Source of the DNA: a virus
Lineage: Duplodnaviria > Heunggongvirae > Uroviricota > Caudoviricetes
Virus record (IMG/VR): IMGVR_UViG_3300027734_000050
Span: 1 to 64,000 of that record
Length of the DNA: 64,000 bases
Reading direction: 5' to 3' (one strand)
Shown here: positions 8,957 through 20,832 of the stretch, one piece after another
Layout of the letters: each line of letters begins with the position of its first letter
How positions within the stretch are numbered: the stretch's first letter is position 1
Notes under the pieces: generated by a model
The model's input: the letters and a program-made list of their open reading frames with translations, nothing else
The model's database searches: none
What the model was told of the DNA's origin: nothing
Made by a program: the position numbers and the translations under genes

Positions 8957-9733
8957 ATGCCTGTATTCTTAGACTCAGTGATAGAGTTCTACATCACCAA
9001 TCAATGCAACCTGGCCTGCACCAACTGCAATAGGTTCAATGACCATGACTTTCGTGGACATTACTCATGGGAAGACTCAGCAGAGGCTGTTGAAGCATGG
9101 AGTAAACGCATCGATGCACCCATGCTCACCATCATTGGTGGAGAACCTAGCCTACATCCTGGATTGGAAACCTGGGTCTCAAATCTTCGTAGATTATGGC
9201 CCGACACTGAGATCATGATACAAAGCAACGGAACCAATCCAAAATTGGCTCGTGAACTTGATTTATGGACAAGATACCGCACAGGATGGGGTATAAGTGT
9301 ACACCAACCACAGATGAGGCACACATTGGAAAAACAATGGGATCAGATCACCCGAGGGTTTTTTGACAACATTGAATTCACTCCGGCTGCTGTGATTCCG
9401 CAAGGTGACGGGTTCACTGTACATCATAGTAATCCTGTAACAGCATTCAAGGCATGTACCATGCGGCACAGCCATACCATATTCCAAGGACGCTTGTATA
9501 AGTGTCCAGTGATGGCTGTATTGCCCGAGTTCCGCACTCAACATTCAGTTGAGATGGACTCAAGACAACAACAGTTGTTATCGCAGTATCAGCCTTTGAG
9601 TGCGGATTGTTTGGAACAACAGTTGATAGACTTTGTTGATACAAGACATCAACCGATCGATCAATGTGAATTTTGCCCTGGCGAATTTGATTTCCAGCCA
9701 GTGGTATTCCATAAAAGAAAAAAACTGCTCTGA
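8957..9733 (+). CDS. radical SAM protein (QueE/NrdG-like small rSAM)
   Basis: CNLACTNC is a CxxxCxxC motif at residues 17-24. IIGGEP motif also present. Confidence 0.65.
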   Translation: MPVFLDSVIEFYITNQCNLACTNCNRFNDHDFRGHYSWEDSAEAVEAWSKRIDAPMLTIIGGEPSLHPGLETWVSNLRRLWPDTEIMIQSNGTNPKLARELDLWTRYRTGWGISVHQPQMRHTLEKQWDQITRGFFDNIEFTPAAVIPQGDGFTVHHSNPVTAFKACTMRHSHTIFQGRLYKCPVMAVLPEFRTQHSVEMDSRQQQLLSQYQPLSADCLEQQLIDFVDTRHQPIDQCEFCPGEFDFQPVVFHKRKKLL

Positions 9734-9803
9734 TGGCGCAATTGGTAGACGCACTATCTTGAGGTGGTAGAAAGTGTGAGTTCGACTCTCACTCAGAGCA
9801 CCA
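9726..9803 (+). tRNA. tRNA, anticodon GAG (Leu-type anticodon but class I shape with a short variable loop)
   Basis: Acceptor GCTCTGA/TCAGAGC, discriminator A with CCA, T-loop GAGTTCGACTCTC and anticodon loop TTGAGGT. Confidence 0.6.
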
Positions 9804-9814
9804 AGAAATTATCG

Positions 9815-9893
9815 GCCCCGGTGGACAAATCTGGCAAAGTCGCTTCTCTCAAAAGGAAGAGTTCTGCGAGTTCAACTCTCGCCCGGGGTACCA
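9815..9893 (+). tRNA. tRNA, anticodon CAA (Leu-type anticodon, 3-bp D-stem, short variable loop)
   Basis: Acceptor GCCCCGG/CCGGGGT with ACCA end. T-arm GCGAGTTCAACTCTCGC. Anticodon stem CTTCT/GGAAG with loop CTCAAAA. Confidence 0.55.
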
Positions 9894-9900
9894 AATTATT

Positions 9901-9976
9901 GCAACTTTAGCTGATGTGGTCATAGCGCCGGTCTGAAGAGCCGGTGAACCAGGTTCGATCCCTGGAGGTTGCACCA
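9901..9976 (+). tRNA. tRNA-Phe (GAA)
   Basis: Acceptor GCAACTT/AGGTTGC. Anticodon loop CTGAAGA. T-loop GGTTCGATCC. CCA end. Confidence 0.75.
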
Positions 9977-9986
9977 TAAAACATGT

Positions 9987-10062
9987 TGGGGTGTCGCCTA
10001 GAGGCCTAAGGCACTGGTCTTTGAAATCAGTATCATGAGTTCGAATCTCATCTCCCCTGCCA
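9987..10062 (+). tRNA. tRNA-Gln (TTG)
   Basis: Gln-like TGGGGTG start. Anticodon stem CTGGT/ATCAG with loop CTTTGAA. T-arm ATGAGTTCGAATCTCAT. Ends GCCA. Two acceptor-stem mismatches. Confidence 0.55.
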
Positions 10063-10107
10063 TCTAACAAAGACCCGTCAACATGGCGGGTTATTAAAAA
10101 AGCAGTT

Positions 10108-10136
10108 GACCAGTATCGTGGTTGATGCTACAATAG
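10108..10136 (+). promoter_or_regulatory. sigma70-type promoter TTGACC-17-TACAAT
   Basis: ttgaccagtatcgtggttgatgctacaat lies upstream of tRNA-Glu. Confidence 0.5.
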
Positions 10137-10207
10137 AGACTAGTTAGAAAGAAGCACGGTGCATCGACGCTGTGCTGCAAGTTCGTTAAAAATTTCAGCA
10201 AGTATTT

Positions 10208-10282
10208 GCTCGGTTCGTCTATCGGTTAGGACGCTGCCCTTTCAAGGCGGAAAGACGAGTTCGATTCTCGTACCGAGTACCA
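10208..10282 (+). tRNA. tRNA-Glu (TTC)
   Basis: Acceptor GCTCGGT/ACCGAGT. Glu-like D-arm TCTATCGGTTAGGAC. Anticodon stem CTGCC/GGCGG with loop CTTTCAA. T-arm ACGAGTTCGATTCTCGT. CCA end. Confidence 0.8.
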
Positions 10283-10357
10283 TATTGAAGCACATTAAAA
10301 CACGCCCCTAGTAGCAGTAGCGAATCAAGGGTGGAAGGTTGAGTGTGCTTCAATATG
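10281..10357. repeat. 14-bp inverted repeat (catattgaagcaca / tgtgcttcaatatg) anchored on the CCA of tRNA-Glu, with a 49-nt loop
   Basis: Arms at 10281-10294 and 10344-10357. It joins the tRNA-Glu 3' end to the 5' end of the next tRNA-like element. Confidence 0.6.
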
Positions 10358-10422
10358 GTGATAGCTTAGTGGGAGAGTGCAGTCGTTGGCTGTGGGCACA
10401 GGTTCAAATCCTGTTCACTATT
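10355..10422 (+). pseudogene. degenerate tRNA-like element (acceptor and T-arm intact, no valid anticodon arm, no CCA)
   Basis: Acceptor ATGGTGA/TCACTAT. D-arm TAGCTTAGTGGGAGAGT. T-arm ACAGGTTCAAATCCTGT. Only 19 nt lie between the D-arm and T-arm, and these form a competing hairpin CTGTG/CACAG. Confidence 0.3.
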
Positions 10423-10434
10423 TCGTATTTTGCA

Positions 10435-10800
10435 AAAAGAAAACACTGTCATCTAGGACTTGTCGGGTGAATAAAACAGTTGGGTAAAAGTCCTTACGGC
10501 GAGTCGCTATATAAGAACACATTTCAGCGGGATAGACCGTGTTGGATAGTTTCTGTTTGGTACAGTATCCGAAGTGTGTTCCTATTTAGTAAAGAATCAA
10601 GTGGAAAGCAAGAGCCACAAAGTAAGCATCGCCGGGTCAGGAAATGTGTCCGGGACGTGTAGGCCGCGCAACCTATACAAACAACGATGGGGTAAGAGCC
10701 CTCATAACATTTTCGCCAAATTTAGGTCTCAAAGTGTTCATGGACGCACACAAGCCTGTCACGCTTGAAGAAGGGGATCGTTACCCCTTGGGACCGCCAA
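10435..10800 (+). other. ~365-nt non-coding spacer inside the tRNA array (possible ncRNA)
   Basis: Only short overlapping ORFs of 60-64 aa without RBS. Flanked by tRNA-like elements. Confidence 0.25.
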
Positions 10801-10806
10801 GTTTTT

Positions 10807-10944
10807 GCGCTGGATTGATATTGCGGTTGGAGTTGATCGCCCAATGGCAGACAGGTTTAATTCCTGTTAGGTGCACCAAGTTATGCAGTGATTGGAGAAG
10901 GCAGATGCCCCGTGCATCGCATACTAGTTGCCACAGAGGTTCGA
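10807..10944 (+). pseudogene. two degenerate tRNA-like elements, each ending ...GCACCAAGTT
   Basis: The elements at 10807-10878 and 10881-10944 each have a canonical T-arm (ACAGGTTTAATTCCTGT and AGAGGTTCGATTCCTTT) and a GCACCA 3' end. No convincing anticodon arm was found. Confidence 0.3.
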
Positions 10945-10969
10945 TTCCTTTGGCTGCACCAAGTTTTAT

Positions 10970-11048
10970 CTGTGTGTGAGAAAGTCCGGTCTAATCTACT
11001 CGCCTTGGAAGTGAGAAATCGTAGGTTCAAATCCTACCGCACAGACCA
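10970..11048 (+). tRNA. tRNA-like, anticodon TGG (Pro), non-canonical D-arm; possibly a pseudogene
   Basis: Acceptor CTGTGTG/CGCACAG. Anticodon stem CTCGC/GTGAG with loop CTTGGAA. T-arm GTAGGTTCAAATCCTAC. ACCA end. The 20-nt D region does not fold into a D-stem. Confidence 0.4.
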
Positions 11049-11259
11049 ATTTTTGAGAGTGTCAGCAAGAGAAAGTCACGCTGAAAAGCTTCTTCGAAGA
11101 GCTTGACAGTGTAACGCAACGGGGGGCGCGAATCCCCAGCAGCAATATAAGTGGACGTTGTGACAAGTATCCCAAGTGGCGTACCGAGACCTTGCCGGCC
11201 TTGTATAATAAGGTGAATGGTTCCGATAATATGGGCGGAACTACTCTCAAATTCAATCT

Positions 11260-11346
11260 GGAGACGTGTGCCGAGTGGCGAAGGCAGCTGACTGTAAATC
11301 AGTGACATAAGAAACACCGTAGGTTCGATCCCTACCGGCTCCACCA
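11260..11346 (+). tRNA. tRNA-Tyr (GTA), type II with long variable arm
   Basis: Acceptor GGAGACG/CGGCTCC. Anticodon stem GCTGA/TCAGT with loop CTGTAAA. Variable arm GACATAAGAAACACC. T-arm GTAGGTTCGATCCCTAC. CCA end. Confidence 0.75.
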
Positions 11347-11352
11347 TATTTC

Positions 11353-11427
11353 GGGGGATTAGTGATAATGGTAGCACATGTGCTTTGCAAGCATGAAGCA
11401 GGAGTTCGATTCTCCTATCCTCCACCA
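11353..11427 (+). tRNA. tRNA-Ala (TGC)
   Basis: Acceptor GGGGGAT/ATCCTCC has a G3:U70 pair. Anticodon loop TTTGCAA. T-arm AGGAGTTCGATTCTCCT. ACCA end. Confidence 0.75.
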
Positions 11428-12162
11428 TTACCGAAATGCACGTTGTCTGAATGCTTCACTGAATACGCCATCCACTCTCAACGAGTAGCAGGCTTGCGGT
11501 GCAGGATCTGACCCGTGATGATTATTGGTGTTGAACCAATTACAATTTCCTGATGAATAGATTTTTTGATCAGTTTCAACATCTAATAGATAAAATTTCT
11601 TCCGATCAGGAGCAAAGTCAATCCAGATGAATTCATCCGAAGCGGGGCGGCTATCATCTGCATAGTCGGTATGTATTGGACTATACCCGCCGGGATAGTT
11701 AATGAATAAAGTCGTGCGACCGTAGTCGCTAAAAATCTCTTGGCGATCAAGCCACTCATAGAAGAAGGCAAGTTGTATATCTTCTGGTAGCGCCACGCAT
11801 TCAGTGGCATGATGCTTGGTAGCGTAGTCTAATGCGTATCGACTGGTTATGGTAAATGTACATGCAGTAACATCTTTTTCAAATACAATGTAATTGGCAA
11901 ATTGATCGCATCTGATTAGATCAGCAACAACTTCTCGTAGGCTAGAGTCAGCGACCATGTCAGGGTTGTCTTCAAACTCATCTTGATAATCATGGGTGCC
12001 AAGACTACCATCTTTAAAAAGCGAACCGTAGAATTTGGTTGGCTTGAGCAGGTGATGATTTTTGGCAATAAATGCCGAGACATAAGGTTTGATTGCAAGG
12101 AGGCCGTTGAGGTCTATTAGATGGTCAAAATTTAAAAACGGTTGATTGTGTGCTAAGAACAT
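11428..12162 (-). CDS. cupin / 2OG-Fe(II)-oxygenase-like protein (aspartyl beta-hydroxylase-like)
   Basis: HTDYADD ... NWFNTNNHHG gives a possible His-x-Asp...His facial triad. It is the only minus-strand gene in the first half of the window. Confidence 0.35.
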   Translation of the reverse strand: MFLAHNQPFLNFDHLIDLNGLLAIKPYVSAFIAKNHHLLKPTKFYGSLFKDGSLGTHDYQDEFEDNPDMVADSSLREVVADLIRCDQFANYIVFEKDVTACTFTITSRYALDYATKHHATECVALPEDIQLAFFYEWLDRQEIFSDYGRTTLFINYPGGYSPIHTDYADDSRPASDEFIWIDFAPDRKKFYLLDVETDQKIYSSGNCNWFNTNNHHGSDPAPQACYSLRVDGVFSEAFRQRAFR

Positions 12163-12213
12163 AAAATATTTATTGCATGGTACTTTTTACTAAGTATTTT
12201 TAAGAGTTTATAT

Positions 12214-12292
12214 TCCGAGAAACCCGAGCTAGGTGCATGGGCGTGACTGTTAATCACTGGTTAGGTGGGTTCGAACCCCACACTCGGAGCCA
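12214..12292 (+). tRNA. tRNA-like, anticodon GTT (Asn), atypical D-arm
   Basis: Acceptor TCCGAGA/ACTCGGA with GCCA end. Anticodon stem GTGA/TCAC with loop CTGTTAA. T-arm GTGGGTTCGAACCCCAC. Confidence 0.5.
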
Positions 12293-12299
12293 AATTTTA

Positions 12300-12373
12300 G
12301 CCCTACTAGTACAATGGCAGTACACTGGTTTTGTAATCCTGTGATGGCAGTTCGATTCTGTCGTGGGGCACCA
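12300..12373 (+). tRNA. tRNA-Thr (TGT), weak anticodon stem
   Basis: Acceptor GCCCTAC/GTGGGGC. D-arm GTACAATGGCAGTAC. Anticodon loop TTTGTAA. T-arm GGCAGTTCGATTCTGTC. ACCA end. Confidence 0.6.
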
Positions 12374-12378
12374 CATAT

Positions 12379-13035
12379 ATGAAAAAAGCCGTGATCCTAG
12401 GCTGTAGCCATTCAGTTGGAGCAGAGATGCATCAAGAACCAGGATTGGTTTTTGACAGCTTCAATCAAGCCAACGACTATGAACAGACTCATTCTTATCC
12501 TGCTCAGATTGCACAGGTATTAGGATATGATCCAATCAATCTCAGCATATCAGGCGGCAGCAATGACGCCATGTTCAGACGGTTCACAGAACAAACTTTA
12601 ACACCCAACGACATAGTGATTGCTTGTTGGACAGGTGTGAATAGAAGTGAAATCTATGATAGCCAATGGATTGCAATGGCTCCGGGCGCAGTGCCAGATC
12701 AAGTCAATGCAGACTACTTTAAACAGTGGTTGTTGTATTCTGCCAACACTGAAGTAGGTATGTTGAATAAAACAAAAAACATCCTTGCACTCAATGCTCT
12801 GGCTCATGCACAAGGCATCCAAGTGATCAACATAGACAGTTTTTGGCCAGTGCCAGATGTTGCCTGGCCCAACTCAGTAGAGTGGGCTGTGAACATAGAT
12901 TTTATGGCATGGTGCCAACAACACAACTTTCCCCACACAGAGAAAGTTCATTTTTTCAAACCAGCACATGACTCGTTTGCCCAGCATGTGCTACAGAATA
13001 TTGCGGGTAGGGTGGCCACCACACCGGTCTCATAA
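12379..13035 (+). CDS. SGNH/GDSL-like hydrolase
   Basis: The N-terminal VILGCSHSVG is a GDS(L) block with a Ser nucleophile. ISGGSND is a block II-like motif. Confidence 0.45.
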   Translation: MKKAVILGCSHSVGAEMHQEPGLVFDSFNQANDYEQTHSYPAQIAQVLGYDPINLSISGGSNDAMFRRFTEQTLTPNDIVIACWTGVNRSEIYDSQWIAMAPGAVPDQVNADYFKQWLLYSANTEVGMLNKTKNILALNALAHAQGIQVINIDSFWPVPDVAWPNSVEWAVNIDFMAWCQQHNFPHTEKVHFFKPAHDSFAQHVLQNIAGRVATTPVS

Positions 13036-13075
13036 GCCAGGTGCATCGGCAGTTCGAATCTGTCACCCGCATCCA
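13002..13075 (+). tRNA. tRNA-like, anticodon CAT (Met/Ile2), small D-arm; overlaps the 3' end of the preceding CDS
   Basis: Acceptor TGCGGGT/ACCCGCA. Anticodon loop CTCATAA. T-arm GGCAGTTCGAATCTGTC. TCCA end. Confidence 0.4.
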
Positions 13076-13195
13076 AGTCAAGTCCATGCGTCACTCAAAC
13101 TGAATGAGTGTTTACCCGTCAGGGAGTCTCTGGACAGTTTTTCAAGTCCATACAGCCTCGATCTGATGGGGCCTCGTCACTGGACTGATTTCTTT

Positions 13196-13272
13196 ACCGC
13201 CTTGGCTCAACTGGATAGAGCACTGGATTACGAATCCGGGGGTTGGGAGTTCGAATCTCTCAGGTGGTACCA
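13196..13272 (+). tRNA. tRNA-Arg (ACG)
   Basis: Acceptor ACCGCCT/AGGTGGT. D-arm GCTCAACTGGATAGAGC. Anticodon stem CTGGA/TCCGG with loop TTACGAA. T-arm GGGAGTTCGAATCTCTC. ACCA end. Confidence 0.8.
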
Positions 13273-13277
13273 TTCAT

Positions 13278-13351
13278 GGCCCTTTAGTTAAAAGGTATAA
13301 CAGACGCTTGATAAGCGTCAGTCGGAGGATCGTTACCTCCCGGGGCTACCA
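13278..13351 (+). tRNA. tRNA-Ile (GAT) with non-canonical T-loop ATCGTTA
   Basis: Acceptor GGCCCTT/CGGGGCT. D-stem GTTA/TAAC. Anticodon stem GACGC/GCGTC with loop TTGATAA. T-stem GGAGG/CCTCC. ACCA end. Confidence 0.55.
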
Positions 13352-13356
13352 AACAG

Positions 13357-13385
13357 TTGACAACATTGTCAAAATGTTGTATAAT
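13357..13385 (+). promoter_or_regulatory. perfect-consensus sigma70 promoter TTGACA-17-TATAAT
   Basis: ttgacaacattgtcaaaatgttgtataat. Confidence 0.55.
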
Positions 13386-13490
13386 AGATTTTTTACACAG
13401 GAGCACAGCATGAAACATGCTAAACCATAGTGTCAATCCAGATCCCATGTAGGTCCGGGTTGGCACGTGAAAGACAATTTTACATACCAA

Positions 13491-13565
13491 CCCTCTAAGA
13501 TGTTAAGGCAGCATGCCGGACTCTTAATCCGTGACGTCCGAGTTCAAATCTCGGTGGAGGGACCA
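13491..13565 (+). tRNA. tRNA-Lys (CTT)
   Basis: Acceptor CCCTCTA/TGGAGGG. Anticodon loop CTCTTAA. T-arm CCGAGTTCAAATCTCGG. ACCA end. Confidence 0.65.
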
Positions 13566-13569
13566 ATAT

Positions 13570-13645
13570 GGGGCTATAGTTAAGCGGTTATAACATCACC
13601 CTTTTAAGGTGTAAGACCTCGGTTCGAATCCGAGTGGCCCTACCA
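13570..13645 (+). tRNA. tRNA-Lys (TTT)
   Basis: Acceptor GGGGCTA/TGGCCCT. D-stem GTTA/TAAC. Anticodon loop CTTTTAA. T-arm CTCGGTTCGAATCCGAG. ACCA end. Confidence 0.7.
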
Positions 13646-13796
13646 TTTAGTGAAACACTTTGCCCAAGCGAGAAACACATCTGTGGAGTCGCTCTCTGCA
13701 CGAGGATGTGAAAAGTCGGAATTATCCTTGCCCCCGCTCTTGGGGATGCGAATTAGGAAAAGGCAAAGGGAAGAGACAGAGTGTTTCACTAAATGG
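13643..13796. repeat. 17-bp inverted repeat (ccatttagtgaaacact / agtgtttcactaaatgg) anchored on the CCA of tRNA-Lys, with a ~120-nt GC-rich loop
   Basis: Arms at 13643-13659 and 13780-13796. A third copy of agtgaaaca lies at 13913. Confidence 0.6.
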
Positions 13797-14016
13797 TAAA
13801 ATTGAAGTTGACCTAGATCTATCCTGTGATGGATATGAGCAAGCGTGAAATATACGACATGTTGCCGGTGAGTCTGCGAGACTTGTTCTGGTCATGCCGA
13901 GTGCCTCAATATAGTGAAACAACAATCTCATCATGTGGAAGATGTAATACTTGCGTGACCTTGAAAGAACAAGGCATTCGCAAATAGAAAGCAAGGCATA
14001 ATTCGTACTATATAGT

Positions 14017-15549
14017 ATGATGTATGACGCTATTATTTTTACAGATTGTTGGGATATGATCGGCAATATCCCGGCGATTGGTGCATACAAATGTGCCCAT
14101 TCTCTAAGAAAAAATGGATACACTTGCTTGGTAGTAAATCATGTTGGAGAGTTTGAGTTTGAGGAACTGGTTGATCTATTGGACCAGGCCATTGGAAATA
14201 ATACTCGTCTGATTGGGTTTAGCACTACTTTCATATCCAACAAACTTGAATTAGAATCCAGCCTCTTCCCAGATGGGTTCTCCAGCCGTAATGAAATTTT
14301 GTTACCTCAAGGTGTAGAATTTGAGAGAAAAATAATAAAGTACATCCGAGATAAAAACAATCTTGTTAAAACTGTAGTGGGTGGCACAAAAGCCACGGTG
14401 AATTATTCAAATCGAGACATAGATTATGTATGTATCGGATACAGCGAAGTTAGTATTGTAAATCTCATGGATCACTTGATTAAAGAGATTGATCTTCAGA
14501 ACAGTCATCGAAACATTTTTGGTCGTGTTATCTTAGATGATAGATATGCACCATCATACGAATTCTCCAAGGAAGATATGATATGGATTGACACTGATGT
14601 GGTGAACCATAAATGTTTGCCTATCGAGATCGGTCGTGGATGTATTTTTCAATGCAAATTTTGTTCCTATCCATTGATCGGGAAGAAGAATCTAGACTAT
14701 GTAAAATCCTACGATTGTTTACAACATGAATTACAAAGAAACTATGAGCAGTTTGGTGTAAAAAATTATCTCATCATGGACGACACGTTTAATGACAATG
14801 TTGAAAAACTAAACCGCATTGAGTCTGTAGTGTCAAAATTAGATTTCCAACCGGAATTTTGGGCATACATCAGACTAGATCTACTTTGCACCAGACCCGA
14901 AACTTTGGATATGTTGTATCGCATTGGTGTTAGATCCATGACGTTTGGTATAGAAACGATGAATCCCAGTGCTGCCAAAAGCATCGGCAAAGGGTTTGAT
15001 CGAAATAAACTCGTTGCCAAACTAGATGAAATTGCGGAAAAATATCCCGACATGTACACAGGAAGTGGCTTTATAGTGGGACTTCCTGGCGAGACACCAG
15101 ATGATTTAAGAAAAACTTCTGATCGATTGATTTCTAGAGAAATTAAGTTACATAATTGGCAATGGGCACCATTGTTTATTGAACGTACAGGAACAGTGAC
15201 TTATACCAGTGAATTCGGACGTGACTTTGAAAAATATGGTTATGTGGATCAGACTCCATTGGATTCGTCTCGGATTGTCAACTGGAAATCTAATGTCATG
15301 ACTCGTGATGAATCTACAGAATTAGCAAATGAACTTAACTCCGTAGCCCAAGATCATGCAGGATTATATCCAGGTAGCATGACAGAAATTAGCACATATG
15401 GAAAATTTCAATGGAAAGATATCATGAAAAACTATCGAAAATTTTCTAAGTTGAATGTCCATAACAACCTACTCGTAGAACATCTTAGACCGAAGTTTAT
15501 GCAAGAATACAAGAAAAAGTTGTTTGATCTGGTTGCAGAGAAATCTTAA
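14017..15549 (+). CDS. B12-binding-domain radical SAM protein (class B rSAM-like)
   Basis: The N-terminal part is a Rossmann-like B12-binding region. GRGCIFQCKFCS is a CxxxCxxC motif at about residue 208. 510 aa. Confidence 0.6.
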   Translation: MMYDAIIFTDCWDMIGNIPAIGAYKCAHSLRKNGYTCLVVNHVGEFEFEELVDLLDQAIGNNTRLIGFSTTFISNKLELESSLFPDGFSSRNEILLPQGVEFERKIIKYIRDKNNLVKTVVGGTKATVNYSNRDIDYVCIGYSEVSIVNLMDHLIKEIDLQNSHRNIFGRVILDDRYAPSYEFSKEDMIWIDTDVVNHKCLPIEIGRGCIFQCKFCSYPLIGKKNLDYVKSYDCLQHELQRNYEQFGVKNYLIMDDTFNDNVEKLNRIESVVSKLDFQPEFWAYIRLDLLCTRPETLDMLYRIGVRSMTFGIETMNPSAAKSIGKGFDRNKLVAKLDEIAEKYPDMYTGSGFIVGLPGETPDDLRKTSDRLISREIKLHNWQWAPLFIERTGTVTYTSEFGRDFEKYGYVDQTPLDSSRIVNWKSNVMTRDESTELANELNSVAQDHAGLYPGSMTEISTYGKFQWKDIMKNYRKFSKLNVHNNLLVEHLRPKFMQEYKKKLFDLVAEKS

Positions 15550-15569
15550 AAGTGTTATAATAGTTCTAT

Positions 15570-15645
15570 GGTGTCATTAGTGTAGTGGCCTGCACCCTGC
15601 TCTGTGAAAGCGGTAGTACCGGATCGATACCGGTATGGCACCCCA
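15570..15645 (+). tRNA. tRNA-His (GTG) with encoded G-1
   Basis: Extra 5' G precedes the acceptor GTGTCAT/ATGGCAC. Discriminator is C. Anticodon stem CTGCT/AGCGG with loop CTGTGAA. T-arm ACCGGATCGATACCGGT. CCA end. Confidence 0.8.
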
Positions 15646-15652
15646 AATTTTC

Positions 15653-15727
15653 AGTTGTGTGACGTAGATGGATGCGTACCGCCCTCATAAGGCGAGGAGG
15701 TTGGATCGATACCAACCACAACTACCA
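15653..15727 (+). tRNA. tRNA-Met/Ile2 (CAT)
   Basis: Perfect acceptor AGTTGTG/CACAACT. Anticodon loop CTCATAA. T-arm GTTGGATCGATACCAAC. ACCA end. Confidence 0.8.
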
Positions 15728-15730
15728 CAT

Positions 15731-15813
15731 GCCCTGGTGACTTATGCAAATTGGCACAGCTACTGGTCTTAGAAGCCAGGTTTTTGCGGGTTCGAGTCCC
15801 GCCTAGGGCACCA
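15731..15813 (+). tRNA. tRNA, 83 nt, anticodon TAG (Leu) with oversized D region; atypical
   Basis: Acceptor GCCCTGG/CTAGGGC. Anticodon stem CTGGT/GCCAG with loop CTTAGAA. T-arm GCGGGTTCGAGTCCCGC. ACCA end. Confidence 0.5.
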
Positions 15814-15870
15814 AGATGACTCGCCTTGATTGATGGCGTATAATAGGAAAAGTAGTCAATCACAAATCTC

Positions 15871-15945
15871 GGGGGATTGGTATAGTTGGTAACATACCGC
15901 CATGGCATGGCGGAGTCAGCGGCTCGAATCCGCTATCCTCCACCA
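15871..15945 (+). tRNA. tRNA-Ala (GGC)
   Basis: Acceptor GGGGGAT/ATCCTCC, identical to the other Ala tRNA including G3:U70. Anticodon stem CCGCC/GGCGG with loop ATGGCAT. T-arm AGCGGCTCGAATCCGCT. ACCA end. Confidence 0.75.
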
Positions 15946-15952
15946 ACAACAT

Positions 15953-16042
15953 AGAGGATGCAGTAGGATGGTTCCTACACCTGTTTGGAAAACAGGCGAC
16001 TGGCGTGAGCTGGTCGGGGTTCAATTCCTCCTTCCTCTGCCA
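15953..16042 (+). tRNA. tRNA-Ser (GGA), type II
   Basis: Acceptor AGAGGAT/TTCCTCT. Discriminator G. Anticodon stem CCTGT/ACAGG with loop TTGGAAA. Long variable arm. T-loop GGGGTTCAATTCC. CCA end. Confidence 0.7.
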
Positions 16043-16064
16043 CAACAATAGAAAGGAACAAGTC

Positions 16065-16493
16065 ATGAATGAATTTGATGTATTAGTGGGCAAGCGTATA
16101 AATGGCTTGTTTATAGCCAACGACAAGTGGACACTGGTATTCCGTGATGTGTCCGGGCGCCGTTATCGTTTTGACACCGAAAATGATTGCTGCAACTCTG
16201 TGTGGTTTAACCATGTGACAGGTGCAAACATCCTGGGTGAAGGCAATACCTTCGATCTGCTACGCGGTGCAGAAGTGTTATCAGTAGAAGCCAAGGGCTG
16301 GGATGAAAACCGCAGCGACGAAGATGGATACGAAGTGGTTCAAGATGCGTTCTGGACCATACGCACCAACCGTGGCTACATAGACCTTGAAGTGCGTAAC
16401 AGCCACAATGGTTACTATGGTGGCAGCGTGAGCTATAGCGGCACCAATGTGGGTGAGTTGGCCGACATGGTACAGATCACCGAAGACTTCTAA
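16065..16493 (+). CDS. hypothetical protein (~142 aa)
   Basis: Start at MNEFDV after the RBS AAAGGAACAAG. The upstream part of the 16005 ORF overlaps tRNA-Ser and was trimmed. Confidence 0.5.
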   Translation: MNEFDVLVGKRINGLFIANDKWTLVFRDVSGRRYRFDTENDCCNSVWFNHVTGANILGEGNTFDLLRGAEVLSVEAKGWDENRSDEDGYEVVQDAFWTIRTNRGYIDLEVRNSHNGYYGGSVSYSGTNVGELADMVQITEDF

Positions 16494-16570
16494 CTCTGTA
16501 TGGCGCAGCCCGGTAGCGCACTTGCATGGGGTGCAAGGGGTCGCAAGTTCGAATCTTGCTACAGAGACCA
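16494..16570 (+). tRNA. tRNA-Pro (GGG)
   Basis: Perfect acceptor CTCTGTA/TACAGAG. Anticodon stem CTTGC/GCAAG with loop ATGGGGT. T-arm GCAAGTTCGAATCTTGC. ACCA end. Confidence 0.75.
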
Positions 16571-16571
16571 C

Positions 16572-16645
16572 AGACTCTTAGTTCAATGGAAGAACGATAC
16601 CCTGACATGGTATAGAAACAAGTTCAATTCTTGTAGAGTCTACCA
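16572..16645 (+). tRNA. tRNA-Val (GAC)
   Basis: Perfect acceptor AGACTCT/AGAGTCT. Anticodon stem ATACC/GGTAT with loop CTGACAT. T-arm ACAAGTTCAATTCTTGT. ACCA end. Confidence 0.8.
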
Positions 16646-16730
16646 CTTGACAGGTATTGCGAATCCTGCTATAATTGTGGCATAGATAGAAAACATCTAT
16701 CCGTGCTCTTTAAAAATTTCGTAAGTTTTT

Positions 16731-16804
16731 GCCTCGTTAGTTTAATGGTAGAACTCCGTCTTTACACGGCGGTTGCGGCAGTTCAATTCTGTCACGAGGT
16801 ACCA
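16731..16804 (+). tRNA. tRNA-Val (TAC)
   Basis: Acceptor GCCTCGT/ACGAGGT. D-arm GTTTAATGGTAGAAC. Anticodon stem CCGTC/GGCGG with loop TTTACAC. T-arm GGCAGTTCAATTCTGTC. ACCA end. Confidence 0.8.
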
Positions 16805-16807
16805 AAT

Positions 16808-16885
16808 GTAGCGGTGGCGGAGAGGTCCAACGCAAGAGTCTGCAAAACTCTAACACCGTGAGTTCAAATCTCACCCGCTACTCCA
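16808..16885 (+). tRNA. tRNA-Cys (GCA)
   Basis: Perfect acceptor GTAGCGG/CCGCTAC. Discriminator U. Anticodon stem AGAGT/ACTCT with loop CTGCAAA. T-arm GTGAGTTCAAATCTCAC. CCA end. Confidence 0.7.
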
Positions 16886-17011
16886 TATATGAACACATTC
16901 ACGGTGGGGATACCAGCAACTGGACGCAGGGGCTATCCGAAAGAGCAGGCATGCTTACCGAAAGCTGGAGACGAGTGTGTTCTTATATGGACAGTTGGTC
17001 CAACAAAATAA

Positions 17012-17085
17012 CTCGGTATAGTGAAATGGTATCACCCGTGCTTTGGGAGCATGAAGCGGAAGTTCGATTCTTCCTACCGAGACCA
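17012..17085 (+). tRNA. tRNA-Pro (TGG)
   Basis: Perfect acceptor CTCGGTA/TACCGAG. D-stem GTGA/TCAC. Anticodon stem CGTGC/GCATG with loop TTTGGGA. T-arm GGAAGTTCGATTCTTCC. ACCA end. Confidence 0.75.
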
Positions 17086-17091
17086 AACAAC

Positions 17092-17178
17092 GCGACTGTG
17101 GCGAAATAGGTAGACGCCTCAGACTTAAAATCTGATGTCCGTAAGGGCGTACCGGTTCGATTCCGGTCAGTCGTACCA
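17092..17178 (+). tRNA. tRNA-Leu (TAA), type II
   Basis: Acceptor GCGACTG/CAGTCGT. D-arm GCGAAATAGGTAGACGC. Anticodon stem TCAGA/TCTGA with loop CTTAAAA. Long variable arm TGTCCGTAAGGGCGT. T-arm ACCGGTTCGATTCCGGT. ACCA end. Confidence 0.8.
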
Positions 17179-17180
17179 GA

Positions 17181-17255
17181 CTGGCGTTAGTATAATGGAT
17201 AATACAGCGGTCTTCTACACCGTGAATATGGGTTCGATTCCTGTACGCCGGACCA
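17181..17255 (+). tRNA. tRNA-Arg (TCT)
   Basis: Acceptor CTGGCGT/ACGCCGG. Anticodon stem GCGGT/ACCGT with loop CTTCTAC. T-loop GGGTTCGATTCC. ACCA end. Confidence 0.7.
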
Positions 17256-17263
17256 GAATATTG

Positions 17264-17354
17264 CCAGCGAGACTGGGTAGTCAGAGAGGTCTTATAAGCC
17301 TTTTAGCGCCAGATTAGCGTTCTTGAGAGAGTTCGAGTCTCTCCGCTGGTACCA
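17264..17354 (+). tRNA. tRNA, 91 nt type II-like, anticodon loop CTTATAA (TAT, Ile-AUA?) - identity uncertain
   Basis: Acceptor GCCAGCG/CGCTGGT. T-arm GAGAGTTCGAGTCTCTC. ACCA end. Candidate anticodon stem GAGGT/GCCTT. The long extra arm is poorly paired. Confidence 0.5.
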
Positions 17355-17365
17355 AACTGTAATGT

Positions 17366-17388
17366 GTAAGTGAGTAAGTAAGTAAAAT
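17366..17388. repeat. simple (GTAA)n-like repeat between tRNAs
   Basis: gtaagtgagtaagtaagtaaaat. Confidence 0.5.
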
Positions 17389-17462
17389 GTATCCATAGTG
17401 TAATGGCAGCATCGCGGTCTCCAAAACCGTCAGTCTAGGTTCGAGTCCTAGTGGGTACGCCA
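17389..17462 (+). tRNA. tRNA-Trp (CCA)
   Basis: Acceptor GTATCCA/TGGGTAC. Anticodon stem GCGGT/ACCGT with loop CTCCAAA. T-arm CTAGGTTCGAGTCCTAG. GCCA end. Confidence 0.75.
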
Positions 17463-17478
17463 ACAAAGAAAGTAAATC

Positions 17479-17961
17479 ATGAAAAAAATGGACCTAGAAA
17501 AAGTCAAAGCATTTATCCATGCACAAAGTCCTGAAACTTCTGTTTACCTGGGCTGCGATAGTGAAAGAGTTAAAGTAGATGGCGTATGGCATGCAGACTA
17601 TGCTCTAGCAGTGGTGGTGCATATCGATAGTTGCCATGGTTGCAAGATCTTTGGTGAAGTACACCGTGAACGCGACTGGGATCAACGCAGTGATAAACCT
17701 AGCATGCGACTGATGAACGAAGTTTACAAGGTGAGTGAACTGTTCCAAAAGATGGCAGATGTGTTAGAAGATCGACTGGTTGAAGTCCACTTGGACATTA
17801 ACCCTGATCAGATGCACAAGAGTTCTGTTGTGGTTAACCAAGCAATTGGATATATAAAGGGAACTTGTAATGTGATTCCAATGGTCAAGCCAAGAGCGTT
17901 TGCTGCTAGTTATGCAGCAGACAGACTAGATTGGGTGCTGAGCAATCGCAAAGCAGCCTAA
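17479..17961 (+). CDS. hypothetical protein (160 aa) embedded in the tRNA array
   Basis: ORF with RBS AAAGAAAGTAAATC upstream. No recognisable motif. Confidence 0.5.
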   Translation: MKKMDLEKVKAFIHAQSPETSVYLGCDSERVKVDGVWHADYALAVVVHIDSCHGCKIFGEVHRERDWDQRSDKPSMRLMNEVYKVSELFQKMADVLEDRLVEVHLDINPDQMHKSSVVVNQAIGYIKGTCNVIPMVKPRAFAASYAADRLDWVLSNRKAA

Positions 17962-18033
17962 CCCGGGCGGCGTGAAAGAGAGCCGTCAACAGCCCGTTTA
18001 GGGACGATTGGGTGAGAAGCCCATCCCAATACC

Positions 18034-18107
18034 GCGGGGTTCGTAAAATGGTATTACCTCATCCTTCCAAGTTGATGTCAGGAGTTCGATTCTCCTACCC
18101 CGCTCCA
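18034..18107 (+). tRNA. tRNA-Gly (TCC)
   Basis: Perfect acceptor GCGGGGT/ACCCCGC. Discriminator U. D-stem GTAA/TTAC. Anticodon loop CTTCCAA. T-arm AGGAGTTCGATTCTCCT. CCA end. Confidence 0.75.
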
Positions 18108-18367
18108 AGTCTATTTAGAATGTTAGAGGCACGAGTCCTGAGTCGTTGTGTGAATTCACTTTCGGTAAGAACGCCCTTGGCAAGATTGCACTTGCGGCAT
18201 GTGACTTGCAGATTGTTGTAAGTGGTTTCTCCACCCTGTGATTCAGGTATCACATGATCCATGTGGATTTCGGCACTGCTGAGATCTTCGTCACAATATA
18301 CACACCGAGGCCCATCTCGTTCAATGATTCGTTGGCGTAGGTTGCGTGGTATGTGTTGCTTCAACAT
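18095..18367 (-). CDS. HNH endonuclease (90 aa) inside the tRNA array
   Basis: CVYCDEDL...HMDHVIPESQGGETTYNNLQVTCRKCNLAKG is a canonical HNH with CxxC pairs. Its 3' end overlaps tRNA-Gly by about 13 nt. Confidence 0.7.
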   Translation of the reverse strand: MLKQHIPRNLRQRIIERDGPRCVYCDEDLSSAEIHMDHVIPESQGGETTYNNLQVTCRKCNLAKGVLTESEFTQRLRTRASNILNRLGAG

Positions 18368-18565
18368 CAGGAATATTTAAGATCAATCGGATCGGGCGAG
18401 TTAAAAACTCATTGACGATGGGCCCAACTGCAAGGGACCAAAAATTGAAACCAGTGCCTCTGACCCAACGAGGGAGATGATTAGTCATCATCATTACATG
18501 TGACTGGTGGGCTCCGGGTGTTGAACCTGACTGCCCTTAAACTCAAATGCAGTGCCCGATTTTGA

Positions 18566-18594
18566 TTGACTTGTATCGAGTTTAAATATATAAT
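18566..18594 (+). promoter_or_regulatory. consensus sigma70 promoter TTGACT-17-TATAAT upstream of tRNA-Ser(GCT)
   Basis: ttgacttgtatcgagtttaaatatataat. An almost identical module is found at 20427-20455. Confidence 0.6.
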
Positions 18595-18603
18595 AACAAC
18601 ATA

Positions 18604-18694
18604 GTGAGTTGGATGAGTGGCTTAAATCAACACCCTGCTAAGGTGTCGTCTCCAGTAATGGGGGCCGTGGGTTCAAATCCCACACTCACTGCCA
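18604..18694 (+). tRNA. tRNA-Ser (GCT), type II
   Basis: Perfect acceptor AGTGAGT/ACTCACT. Discriminator G. Anticodon stem ACACC/GGTGT with loop CTGCTAA. Long variable arm. T-arm GTGGGTTCAAATCCCAC. CCA end. Confidence 0.8.
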
Positions 18695-18710
18695 AACAAA
18701 TAGCACAAAA

Positions 18711-19403
18711 ATGAAATTAGTTTTTTGTTTTCCTGGCCAATCATTCAGCAAGAACTGGATGGCAGCGTGGAATGACACCATACGCTGGCTTTATCGAAAC
18801 AACATAGAATATGTGACAATAAATGCATATTCGCCAGTGATCTACAACTGTAGAAACATGCTGTTGGGGGCTACCGGTAATCCACCTAGAACTTTCCGAC
18901 CATTCAACGGCGTGCTAGATTACGATTGGATCATCTGGATTGACAACGATAACATCTGGACACCCGAGGATCTTGAACGACTGATCAGTGTTCCTGAACA
19001 CCAGATCGTCACTGGATTCTATATACAGCATGACAACCGAACTTATGCACAGGCTGTGTTCCACAGTGATAGTAAAACCGATTTGCTGTGGTTACCACGA
19101 GAGATGGTGCATGTAAATGGATATAGATTCCAGTTGGCTGCCTCAGGAATGGGATTCATGGCTGTGCAAAAAGGTGTGTTTGAATCCATGGAATGTCCGT
19201 TCTTCCGACCCGTTGAATACGAAATCAAAGATGATACAACTGCATTCTTATCAGAGGACACAGGCTTCTGCCACAGGGCAATAAACGCAGGATACCAAGT
19301 ATGGGCAGATCCCGGCATACAGGTCAAACATGAGAAGGCCTGGTTGTTAAGCGGTGACAGCGATCACGGCATCAAGCCCGAGAATGTTGTGTTAAATAGA
19401 TAA
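18711..19403 (+). CDS. putative GT-A-fold glycosyltransferase (DxD-type)
   Basis: WIDNDNIW has a DxD-like motif after a beta-strand. SEDTGFC is also present. 230 aa. The functional call is weak. Confidence 0.3.
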   Translation: MKLVFCFPGQSFSKNWMAAWNDTIRWLYRNNIEYVTINAYSPVIYNCRNMLLGATGNPPRTFRPFNGVLDYDWIIWIDNDNIWTPEDLERLISVPEHQIVTGFYIQHDNRTYAQAVFHSDSKTDLLWLPREMVHVNGYRFQLAASGMGFMAVQKGVFESMECPFFRPVEYEIKDDTTAFLSEDTGFCHRAINAGYQVWADPGIQVKHEKAWLLSGDSDHGIKPENVVLNR

Positions 19404-20446
19404 TGCAACCGCCCAAGTTCCTGTTCTTAGATATCAACCTACAATGCAATCTCAAATGCAAGACCTGCATGTATTGGACACGAGAAGAAGTTGTATTACC
19501 CACACACATATCTATCGAACAACGCAGTGATATCATTGCAGAGTTTGCTACACTGAATCCCCAAGGGGCTGTGGTGATCTGTGGTGGCGAAGCACTGATG
19601 AATCCTGAAAGGTATTGGCCTATAACAAGACAATGCCGTTCATTAGGACTAAGATGTTTGAGCGTGATGAATGGCACTATGGTCACAGATCTGTCGTTCG
19701 CTAAGAAATTGATAACGGAAGGCCCAAGCGAAATAACAATATCCTTGAACAGTTATATCCCAGAGGTGCATGATTCCACCCGTGGAGTCGCAGGATCATT
19801 TGACATGGCAGTGAATGCCATCCGGTTGTTGTTGCAGGCAAGAAAAGAATTAAACAGCAACACACCCATCTACGCCATGTCAGTGATGTGCGAACAGAAC
19901 TATCGAGACCTAGATCAGTTCTACGACTTTGTGTTGAATGATCTAAAGGCAGACAAGTTAAAGTTAAACTGGTTACAGCCCACATTTGGCACATTGCTGG
20001 ATCGTAATGGTGATCCACGGCCAGACAAGTTCTACGACAACAATGTGATCCGTGATCATGAAGCATTGTTTGAGATCTTGAATCACTGCACAGAGAAATA
20101 CCAGTTGAATCTGGATCCCGAATACATAGAAACAGTTCGCAAGTATCATCGCAGTGTGTTCAAGAATGCGGATGCAGTCACAGGCTGGGATGGTGACGGC
20201 ACAGAAGATGCCATATGCAACAGTTTCGATCGCAACATCATGGTCAATATGGACGGTGTTGCCCGACTGTGTTTTTCAGATCAGTTCCCTAGTTTCAAGA
20301 TTAGCAGGCCCGGTGATCTCGCACATTTGTGGCACAGTGCCGAACCAGTGAGAAATCTCATGAGACCGTGCAGACAGTATTGCGGAATCAGTCACAGCGT
20401 AAGGCGAGTCAATGCTACTAAGAAGATTGACATCTATCAAGTTTGA
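19403..20446 (+). CDS. radical SAM protein (SPASM/twitch-like, AnSME/PqqE-like)
   Basis: CNLKCKTC is a CxxxCxxC motif at residues 15-22. VICGGEALMNP is present. There are C-terminal Cys residues. Confidence 0.6.
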   Translation: MQPPKFLFLDINLQCNLKCKTCMYWTREEVVLPTHISIEQRSDIIAEFATLNPQGAVVICGGEALMNPERYWPITRQCRSLGLRCLSVMNGTMVTDLSFAKKLITEGPSEITISLNSYIPEVHDSTRGVAGSFDMAVNAIRLLLQARKELNSNTPIYAMSVMCEQNYRDLDQFYDFVLNDLKADKLKLNWLQPTFGTLLDRNGDPRPDKFYDNNVIRDHEALFEILNHCTEKYQLNLDPEYIETVRKYHRSVFKNADAVTGWDGDGTEDAICNSFDRNIMVNMDGVARLCFSDQFPSFKISRPGDLAHLWHSAEPVRNLMRPCRQYCGISHSVRRVNATKKIDIYQV

Positions 20447-20455: not shown

Positions 20456-20465
20456 AACAACATAA

Positions 20466-20777: not shown

Positions 20778-20832
20778 ACAACACGGCTCTGCCCTGTGCT
20801 CTTTGTCAAATCACAGCAGGGTTCTTTTACAT

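Follow-up and report, generated by a model that had tools for sequence, protein, structure and literature searches.

The first 64,000 nucleotides of the IMG/VR virus record IMGVR_UViG_3300027734_000050, which belongs to an uncultured freshwater phage of the class Caudoviricetes, were analysed and are referred to here as the window. Three genes for radical S-adenosylmethionine (SAM or AdoMet) enzymes, designated rSAM1, rSAM2 and rSAM3, lie within its array of tRNA genes. An earlier reading of this DNA from its letters (the original prediction) had proposed radical SAM genes at 8957-9733, 14017-15549 and 19403-20446, and open reading frames (ORFs) with exactly these coordinates were present on the + strand. 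Judged from sequence, their products are best explained as functional radical SAM enzymes of three unrelated subfamilies, new members of known enzyme kinds. The genes, the array and a glycosyltransferase (GT) candidate are as follows; PDB denotes the Protein Data Bank.

8957-9733, + strand: rSAM1, a compact twitch-domain radical SAM enzyme, SpeY/BtrN-like (Pfam, invariant motifs, PDB profile and fold model)
14017-15549, + strand: rSAM2, with a B12-type Rossmann domain, a radical SAM barrel and a helical C-terminal domain (class-B architecture)
18711-19403, + strand: GT-A-like glycosyltransferase candidate (phrog_1574), its stop codon overlapping the rSAM3 start codon
19403-20446, + strand: rSAM3, a twitch-domain radical SAM enzyme coupled to a glycosyltransferase (Pfam, invariant motifs, PDB profile and neighbourhood)
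9727-21065, + strand: array of 36 tRNA genes with rSAM1 to rSAM3 and other cargo ORFs embedded (ARAGORN, Rfam)

Membership in the radical SAM superfamily

The CxxxCxxC motif begins at residue 17 of rSAM1 (CNLACTNC; 258 amino acids (aa)), residue 209 of rSAM2 (CIFQCKFC; 510 aa) and residue 15 of rSAM3 (CNLKCKTC; 347 aa). All three proteins scored above the gathering score of the Pfam family Radical_SAM (PF04055; 29.5 bits, profile length 166), with 41.5 bits for rSAM1 over profile positions 2-112, 58.2 bits for rSAM2 over positions 1-165 and 52.6 bits for rSAM3 over positions 7-166. In alignments of 29 to 34 homologues per protein, the cluster cysteines were invariant in all three families, and the AdoMet motif G61-G62-E63 was invariant in the rSAM1 and rSAM3 families. 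At the corresponding position rSAM2 has a non-canonical, invariant DDTFND, which aligns with the QDT segment of RimO. The original prediction had named coincidental CxxxCxxC motifs, lacking an AdoMet motif, as the outcome that would overturn it; this outcome did not occur, since the cysteines and the GGE or DDTFND residues proved invariant. The models of rSAM1 and rSAM2 also matched solved radical SAM enzymes in their TIM-barrel fold.

All window ORFs of at least 80 aa were scanned for CxxxCxxC. Ten matches were obtained, nine of them in large ORFs, namely rSAM1 to rSAM3 and the following group.

45554-55686, - strand: six further radical SAM ORFs, one paralogous family with an N-terminal SPASM/twitch domain, outside the present finding

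Each of the six matched Pfam Radical_SAM with E ≤6e-5, and two reached the gathering score. The scan and the Pfam results thereby bear out the proposed total of nine radical SAM genes in the window. BLASTP detected no similarity among rSAM1, rSAM2 and rSAM3, nor between any of them and the six-member family, which indicates three independent acquisitions.

Full-length homologues of the three proteins number in the hundreds to thousands. A tblastn search of 50,697 GenBank phage records gave no match for rSAM2 or rSAM3 and only two weak matches for rSAM1 (24-27% identity, the 27% match being to a cyanophage), and a megablast search of the 14-kb region against GenBank phages returned tRNA-sized matches only. 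The density of radical SAM genes had been called exceptional for a phage. This holds against cultured phages, in which two of the three genes had no tblastn match; among uncultured aquatic phages, the trait recurs. No relevant literature was found on twitch radical SAM enzymes with glycosyltransferases or on phage cobalamin-dependent radical SAM enzymes.

rSAM3 is coupled to a candidate glycosyltransferase

The invariant residues of the rSAM3 family are C15/C19/C22, G61-G62-E63, C229, C272-x12-G-x4-C290 and C323x3C327. rSAM3 had been described as SPASM/twitch-like. The twitch part of that description is retained by the C-terminal cysteine domain, and the SPASM part is not: there was no match to PF13186 (SPASM), and the extra conserved cysteines number four to five, not seven, so that rSAM3 is assigned to the twitch type. 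When the family profile was compared with the PDB, the nucleoside-sugar decarboxylase BlsE was the best match (E 1e-7). The public gene call from JGI starts at Met23 (19469) and loses the CxxxCxxC motif. The right start is the ATG at 19403; it shares an ATGA with the stop codon of the gene upstream and restores the cluster motif.

The gene that ends in this overlap (18711-19403) is the GT-A-like neighbour expected from the original prediction. Its product matched phrog_1574, a family of unknown function, with E 6e-37 and a glycosyltransferase PHROG with E 8e-8, and its invariant residues are D78xD80, E182-D183 and H207. The pair formed by this gene and rSAM3 was kept in 13 of 15 related IMG/VR loci, with identities of 59-93% for the GT-like protein and 74-95% for rSAM3. 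At the loci L100 and L102, which have no tRNA genes nearby, the rSAM3 start is overlapped instead by a gene for another GT-A enzyme, GT7 (E 1e-19 and 2e-20), and a GT2 gene lies downstream. Some GT-A or GT-A-like glycosyltransferase gene therefore stands beside rSAM3 in all 15 related phage loci. The window's GT-like protein showed no relationship to the GT7 of L100, and its similarity to the GT2 of L011 was not significant (E 0.19), though the DxD motifs align.

Full-length bacterial orthologues of rSAM3 (42-68% identity) were found in Xanthobacter, Variovorax, Rhodoplanes, Ancylobacter, Holophaga and Planctomycetota. Among 20 bacterial neighbours scanned, taken as tightly linked, co-directional ORFs, nine were glycosyltransferases (six GT2, two GT25 and one GT1/4); the remainder included a polysaccharide deacetylase, a GFO/IDH/MocA oxidoreductase and a PAP2 protein. 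A tenth case of rSAM3 with a glycosyltransferase lies in a glycan cluster. Neighbours were also clustered, with spurious antisense ORFs in high-GC (guanine plus cytosine) DNA filtered out, and no single conserved neighbour was present in more than 16 of 55 bacterial loci. The bacterial signal is thus one of enzyme class, glycosyltransferases, and not of orthology. That the partner is kept only at the level of some glycosyltransferase suggests that the sugar is what rSAM3 acts on, in the simplest case as the nucleotide-sugar donor. The pairing of rSAM3 with a glycosyltransferase is the strongest functional clue of this study.

rSAM1 is a compact twitch-domain enzyme

The residues invariant among 29 rSAM1 homologues are C17/C21/C24, G61-G62-E63-P64, C167-x10-G-x4-C183, C218 and C237xxC240, and the C-terminal set of these (from C167 onwards) constitutes a twitch signature. 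PF13186 was not matched, and four to five extra cysteines are conserved, compared with seven for a full SPASM domain. The family profile, searched against the PDB, gave SpeY (7wzv) with E 2.4e-13; MoaA and BtrN were far behind. An AlphaFold model of rSAM1 (pLDDT 86) was compared with solved structures by Foldseek, which returned SpeY as the top match over the full length (TM 0.73 over about 270 columns, E 8e-12) and BtrN as the next. The PDB entry 7wzv was assigned to SpeY from its Foldseek title, 'Twitch Radical SAM Dehydrogenase SpeY'; a literature lookup of the PDB codes 7WZV, 7WZX and 7X0B found no paper.

SpeY is the spectinomycin twitch radical SAM dehydrogenase and BtrN is 2-deoxy-scyllo-inosamine dehydrogenase. 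Like SpeY (7WZV, 7WZX, 7X0B) and BtrN (4M7T), rSAM1 combines a compact radical SAM core with a C-terminal twitch domain; in the alignment with SpeY, cysteines are found opposite its auxiliary-cluster residues C167 and C183, and its family has an invariant CX10GX4C element and, further on, an invariant CxxC. The spacing of the four cysteines resembles that of the ligands of the BtrN auxiliary cluster. rSAM1 differs from both enzymes in its identity of only about 20%, in the extra invariant cysteine C218 and in having no aminoglycoside cluster around it. The original prediction had placed rSAM1 with QueE and NrdG, which it resembles in small size and an N-terminal CxxxCxxC motif. That placement was not upheld. 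rSAM1 scored 19.5 bits against a cut-off of 260 for QueE (TIGR03963), matched a QueE-like PHROG only at E 4e-4 and scored 32.7 bits against a cut-off of 131 for NrdG2 (TIGR02495); unlike QueE and NrdG it has a twitch domain with four to five conserved cysteines, and its closest structures are SpeY and BtrN.

Relatives of rSAM1 occupy more than 527 IMG/VR loci, and no source other than phage or metagenome sequence was found for the family. In the window and in relatives of 77-80% identity, rSAM1 directly precedes the first tRNA of the array. Among the more distant loci (31-52% identity), downstream sequence of 1 kb or more was available for 68, and 62 of these had no tRNA within 5 kb. These distant genes lie in a conserved block, with a 127-aa ORF before them, phage IscU and IscA genes after them and ribonucleotide reductase nearby. 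IscU/NifU and IscA/HesB genes directly after the rSAM1 homologue, near a class I ribonucleotide reductase, were seen at L124, L128, L133, L140, L157 and about 40 other loci. The presence of IscU and IscA beside rSAM1 homologues is consistent with rSAM1 being a genuine Fe-S enzyme.

Two IMG/VR contigs, L169 and L186, are syntenic with window positions 44488-64000 at 45-76% identity and carry an rSAM1-family gene of 287 aa (10001-10864 and 9974-10837, respectively) together with an ORF of 232-234 aa in a multi-radical-SAM locus. There, the rSAM1-family gene and this ORF sit between the orthologues of window ORFs 55683-56672 and 54313-55686, and this position links the rSAM1 enzyme type, by way of a paralogue of 35% identity, to a sugar and multi-radical-SAM pathway. 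The AMP-binding and TctC-like genes of the window (57976-59936) had no counterpart in the examined parts of L169 and L186. In the window itself, the segment 34802-39007 (+ strand) contains ThyX and, after it, genes for an NAD-dependent sugar epimerase/dehydratase, a DegT/DnrJ/EryC1 aminotransferase and a GFO/IDH/MocA oxidoreductase (35962-39007); a carbamoyltransferase gene of NodU/CmcH type is at 42915-44390 (- strand), beside the locus of six radical SAM genes. Together the genes at 34802-39007 and 42915-44390 have the appearance of an amino-sugar pathway.

ARAGORN and Rfam both place the start of tRNA-Leu(gag) at 9727, so that this tRNA gene includes the stop codon of rSAM1 (9731-9733). In relatives the rSAM1 ORF and the tRNA abut without overlap. 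If RNase P processed an rSAM1/tRNA-Leu co-transcript, the mRNA would lose its stop codon and become a non-stop mRNA; a tmRNA is encoded by the phage itself.

Directly upstream of rSAM1 are an AAA_33 kinase gene (6039-6527), a calcineurin-like phosphoesterase gene (6515-7117) and a 409-aa ORF (7254-8483), all on the + strand. The 409-aa ORF had no match in Pfam, NCBIfam, PHROG or the PDB; a PP-loop-like 'SFSGGADS' motif is readable in it, and in the relative L015 a 409-aa ORF that is probably its homologue is located elsewhere. The kinase and phosphoesterase resemble a polynucleotide kinase-phosphatase, so that the upstream block, next to the tRNA array, could serve RNA repair or RNA modification. 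Other genes of the phage code for a protein with a biotin-protein-ligase N-terminal-like domain (5095-5772) and for a periplasmic solute-binding protein, SBP_bac_8 (23979-25040).

rSAM2 has a class-B architecture

For rSAM2, the original prediction had specified a B12-binding domain. The fold supports an N-terminal domain of this type. The model (pLDDT 87, pTM 0.87) matched class-B enzymes in a Foldseek search of the PDB, with TsrM best (E 1.6e-16) and OxsB, CysS, MgmA and TokK next; AprD4 ranked lower, followed by the methylthiotransferases MtaB, RimO and MiaB. The Pfam B12-binding profile (PF02310) scored 24.5 bits, below its gathering score of 32.1. With TsrM, TokK, CysS, MgmA, OxsB and AprD4, rSAM2 shares an N-terminal Rossmann domain, a radical SAM barrel and a C-terminal domain (Foldseek E 1e-16 to 1e-12, TM 0.5-0.62), and it differs from the class-B enzymes in an identity of only 13-15%. 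In a sequence-profile search at E<0.1, no class-B methylase was matched except MgmA (9ccb); AprD4 and RimO were also matched, and all of these matches ran through the radical SAM core.

Invariant residues of the rSAM2 family are C209/C213/C216, S69 (in GFSTTF) and G122-G123. We take S69 and G122-G123 to fit the SxL and GG elements of B12-binding domains, and the lack of the DxHxxG histidine to be a trait shared with other class-B enzymes. The architecture of rSAM2 is thus that of class B, and the enzyme may use cobalamin. AprD4 has the same B12-like domain and binds no cobalamin; given this precedent, a class-B fold alone is no proof of cobalamin binding by rSAM2.

A methylthiotransferase (MiaB, RimO or MtaB) was considered for rSAM2 and rejected. 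Residues 1-170 contain no conserved cysteine triad, and the C-terminus (430-509) is helical where a methylthiotransferase has TRAM; the absence of the three-cysteine N-terminal cluster and the helical C-terminus together exclude this assignment. Scores against the methylthiotransferase families were 19-30 bits, compared with cut-offs of 251-357. The curated class-B subfamilies (PhpK, HpnR, BchE, MJ_0865 and others) were not reached either, the best NCBIfam class-B scores being 77.6 bits where 600 would have been required and 70.1 bits where the cut-off is 360.

The rSAM2 family comprises 819 clusters at 50% identity (E ≤1e-30) and at least 253 loci in IMG/VR, and relatives also occur among proteins of 'uncultured Caudovirales phage'. 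It was seen only in phage-like contexts, and no PHROG family was found for it. Its neighbours vary and include an Asp/Arg hydroxylase, a 2-oxoglutarate oxygenase, ClpP, an acyl carrier protein with a ketoacyl synthase, and another radical SAM protein. An Asp/Arg hydroxylase gene lies immediately upstream of the rSAM2 homologue in 15 of 63 loci, and in L006 in addition, which we regard as a lead from which no conclusion is drawn. Homologues adjoining a gene of the Asp/Arg beta-hydroxylase family (PF05118) were seen at L006-L008, at L275 and at 15 IMG/VR loci such as L082, and on jumbo-phage contigs rSAM2 homologues lie near genes for ClpP, ClpS, acyl carrier protein and ketoacyl synthase.

In one relative the flanking genes are 80-91% identical to those of the window, but identity drops to 46% for the gene in the rSAM2 slot, after which comes a second paralogue. 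The gene is altogether missing in other relatives. The GC content of rSAM2 is 37.2% (34.6% at third codon positions), compared with 44.6% for the window and 45% for rSAM1 and rSAM3. The low identity between well-conserved flanks, the loss in relatives and the deviant GC content mark rSAM2 as mobile cargo, and its low GC content is consistent with a recent import from a lower-GC phage.

Promoters and cargo turnover in the tRNA array

In total, 37 tRNA genes and one tmRNA gene were identified by ARAGORN and confirmed by Rfam, all on the + strand. The tmRNA gene and the promoter-like sites in and near the array are as follows.

21309-21718, + strand: tmRNA gene (ARAGORN, Rfam)
8529-8557, + strand: near-consensus, putative sigma-70 promoter, TTGACA-N17-TACAAT, 11 of 12 matches, about 400 nucleotides (nt) upstream of rSAM1
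13357-13385, + strand: perfect sigma-70 consensus promoter, TTGACA-N17-TATAAT, 12 of 12 matches, upstream of two tRNA-Lys genes and rSAM2
16647-16675, + strand: perfect sigma-70 consensus promoter within the array (consensus match)
18566-18594, + strand: near-consensus promoter-like site, 11 of 12 matches, upstream of tRNA-Ser, the GT-like gene and rSAM3
20427-20455, + strand: perfect sigma-70 consensus promoter, overlapping the rSAM3 3' end and reading into tRNA-Gly

Perfect TTGACA-N17-TATAAT sites occur three times in the window, all of them inside the array and on the + strand, where 0.01 would be expected by chance. The radical SAM genes would probably be expressed early and co-transcribed with the tRNAs from these host-type consensus promoters. 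The tmRNA (21285-21718 in this match) matched the Betaproteobacteria family (Rfam RF01850, 120 bits; tag ANDEQFALAA), a hint that the host of this phage is probably a betaproteobacterium. By tmRNA type and a GC content of about 45%, bacteria of the Polynucleobacter or Limnohabitans type are candidate hosts.

Related phage contigs have the same tRNA backbone with different cargo. The cargo of their arrays includes extra paralogues of the rSAM1 and rSAM2 families and other ORFs, some with CxxxCxxC. An HNH endonuclease gene lies inside the window's array at 18095-18367 (- strand); with it, further HNH or NUMOD3 homing-endonuclease-like genes in or beside the array were seen at 22658-23650 (+ strand) and 32144-33454 (+ strand). 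Such genes in or near the array may add to the turnover of its cargo. The tRNA-Ile(tat) call at 17263-17354 is 92 nt, unusually long for tRNA-Ile, and 92-nt tRNA-Ile calls were made at the corresponding place in the relatives L015, L092, L093, L115 and L119; an intron, an extra arm or a mis-call could account for it.

Adjacency to tRNA genes was confined to the closest relatives. A tRNA lay within 5 kb in 16 of 79 rSAM2-family loci and was lacking there in the other 63, and six of 80 rSAM1-family loci abut a tRNA array. This adjacency is specific to the present phage lineage. It had been suggested that the class-B enzyme could methylate RNA, a suggestion that found no support here, as tRNA adjacency is absent from most loci of the rSAM1 and rSAM2 families. 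The position of these genes among the tRNAs is most economically read as reflecting a promoter-rich insertion hot spot that carries swappable cargo.

Discussion

We propose that the three genes encode early-expressed, exchangeable accessory enzymes, of which rSAM1 and rSAM3 carry out sugar chemistry and rSAM2 is of class-B type. Taken as a whole, this explanation is given a probability of roughly 0.5. Within it, sugar chemistry for rSAM1 and rSAM3 appears likely. rSAM3 would have as its partner the glycosyltransferase of the gene directly upstream. AdoMet would be cleaved reductively at the CxxxCxxC cluster to yield a 5'-deoxyadenosyl radical that takes a hydrogen from a sugar carbon, and the auxiliary cluster of the twitch domain, fully ligated by cysteines, would handle the electron. 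The sugar would in this way be oxidised, epimerised, dehydrated or decarboxylated, most likely while it is still part of the nucleotide-sugar donor, and the glycosyltransferase would then transfer it. Its acceptor may be a host envelope glycan, a virion protein or DNA. rSAM1 is predicted to oxidise or epimerise a secondary alcohol carbon of a sugar or cyclitol in the manner of SpeY and BtrN, and it may feed the phage's large sugar and multi-radical-SAM locus at 36-64 kb. rSAM2 would most likely methylate an unactivated carbon, or perform other cobalamin-assisted radical chemistry.

The closest parallel for rSAM3 is BlsE, a cytosylglucuronate decarboxylase. A glycosyltransferase-like enzyme makes the substrate of BlsE, and rSAM3 too has a glycosyltransferase as its partner. 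BlsE (PDB 7VOB), SkfB, CteB and MoaA share with rSAM3 the GGE radical SAM core and the CX12GX4C...CX3C C-terminal cysteine domain. The alignment with BlsE covers only residues 5-152, and the rSAM3 orthologues of 42-68% identity lie in diverse bacterial glycan loci, not in antibiotic clusters. At the level of gene content, the window resembles pelagimyophages, which have variable radical SAM cassettes with glycosyltransferase and lipopolysaccharide-sugar genes in a hypervariable 'host recognition cluster' (PMC7029224). Both are aquatic, myophage-type genomes whose accessory radical SAM islands differ between close relatives (PMC7029224); the island described here is a tRNA array with consensus promoters and not a tail-fibre region.

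Several observations weigh against the proposed explanation. The functional statements draw on 13-21% identity to characterised enzymes and on gene neighbourhood, and none of the three proteins reached a curated NCBIfam subfamily cut-off. The GT-like protein scored 19.4 bits for Pfam GT2, below the gathering score of 23.3, and its PDB profile match was weak (E 0.1), to the viral GT-A enzyme STIV A197, with the DxD motif aligned. The bacterial neighbours of rSAM3 come from high-GC genomes with noisy ORF calling, and some of the loci are from related species. The link of rSAM1 to the multi-radical-SAM locus depends on a paralogue of 35% identity in other phages. rSAM2 had no conserved functional partner across the lineages examined, and AprD4 ranks among its matches by both sequence profile and fold. 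The possible RNA-repair or RNA-modification genes upstream of rSAM1 also sustain an RNA-centred reading.

Such a reading would have one or more of the three enzymes modify phage or host tRNA, by cobalamin-dependent C-methylation (rSAM2) or by sugar decoration of a tRNA nucleoside (the glycosyltransferase with rSAM3), for example; embedding in the array would then be functional, for instance as protection against anticodon nucleases. All three genes are within the array, whose strong promoters they share; rSAM1 lies directly against the first tRNA here and in the relatives of 77-80% identity, and rSAM2-family genes recur in tRNA arrays across 31-82% identity. The rSAM2 fold also matches the tRNA methylthiotransferases MiaB and MtaB, the kinase/phosphoesterase-like pair and the ORF with the PP-loop motif lie upstream, and an RNaseH-like gene is present in the array. 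We nevertheless consider tRNA modification unlikely. Outside this lineage, no tRNA lay within 5 kb in 63 of 79 rSAM2-family and 62 of 68 rSAM1-family loci, and in L100, L102 and bacteria rSAM3 keeps a glycosyltransferase and not tRNAs. rSAM2 lacks the three-cysteine cluster of methylthiotransferases and has a helical C-terminus rather than TRAM, the MiaB, MtaB and QueE scores were 19-30 bits against cut-offs of 251-357, and the cargo of the array is heterogeneous and swapped between relatives.

The three proteins might alternatively be peptide or protein maturases, either of the type that produces ribosomally synthesised and post-translationally modified peptides (RiPPs) or acting on a virion protein. 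Twitch and SPASM radical SAM enzymes often introduce thioether or carbon-carbon crosslinks into peptides or epimerise them, and peptide methylation is known from class-B enzymes. The NCBIfam matches of rSAM3 include StsB, ScmE/F and AlbA (sactipeptide and other SPASM peptide maturases), its PDB profile matches include SkfB and CteB, and a GenBank phage relative of rSAM1 is annotated 'radical SAM superfamily maturase'. For rSAM2, NCBIfam matches include RiPP C-methyltransferases, fold matches include MgmA, and relatives adjoin Asp/Arg beta-hydroxylase, ClpS and ClpP genes. All of these scores are far under the family cut-offs, however, and extend mainly over the shared radical SAM core. Over its full length rSAM1 is best matched by small-molecule sugar enzymes, and the consistent partner of rSAM3 in phages and bacteria is a glycosyltransferase. 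Beside the three genes, where small ORFs were not systematically searched, no gene for a precursor peptide, no leader peptidase and no RiPP recognition element came to light. A maturase function is accordingly regarded as rather improbable.

Hypermodification of DNA by the glycosyltransferase and rSAM3, perhaps with rSAM1 and rSAM2, is a variant of the proposed explanation that names the acceptor, for example a hydroxymethyl-pyrimidine to which a sugar is added against restriction. Phage glycosyltransferases that glucosylate DNA and radical SAM enzymes in thymidine hypermodification pathways provide precedents. Downstream of the pair, the relative L100 has ThyX and the relative L095 has a methyltransferase and a dCMP deaminase, and the window's ThyX gene adjoins the nucleotide-sugar genes. 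These nucleotide-metabolism neighbours may nonetheless be plain syntenic core genes, and the bacterial orthologues of rSAM3 are in envelope-glycan contexts (GT25, PMT_2, polysaccharide deacetylase and PAP2). In the window no hydroxymethylase, DNA kinase or base-exchange enzyme was identified, and we hold this variant to be improbable as well.

A bolder claim, that the radical SAM cargo of the array acts on nucleic acid, appears to us a long shot. Under this claim rSAM2, for example, would methylate a base of tRNA or DNA, the first cobalamin-dependent radical SAM enzyme of a virus to do so, or the glycosyltransferase and rSAM3 would place a radical-tailored sugar on tRNA or DNA. If true, it would mean phage resistance to host anticodon nucleases or to restriction, and the promoter-driven embedding among tRNAs would be functional and not incidental. 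That the CxxxCxxC motifs are coincidental or the ORFs decaying pseudogenes can be dismissed, since all three pass the Pfam gathering score, have hundreds to thousands of full-length homologues with invariant cluster and AdoMet-binding residues and, for rSAM1 and rSAM2, yield confident fold models.

For the proposed set of exchangeable accessory enzymes, several consequences follow. The rSAM1 and rSAM2 families, though large, hardly appear among cultured phages or in curated databases, and none of their members has been studied so far. A phage enzyme of class-B architecture implies that the virus would depend on the host's supply of cobalamin and Fe-S clusters, and some relatives bring their own IscU and IscA beside the rSAM1 homologue. 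A phage tRNA array can act as a strongly promoted landing pad for metabolic cargo, with the caution that an RNA-related function should not be read from position alone. The module of glycosyltransferase and rSAM3 and the phage class-B family are the best targets for experiment. The pairing of rSAM3 with a glycosyltransferase outlasts a swap of the glycosyltransferase family and recurs in many bacteria, and it probably represents a new radical sugar-tailoring step in glycan biosynthesis.

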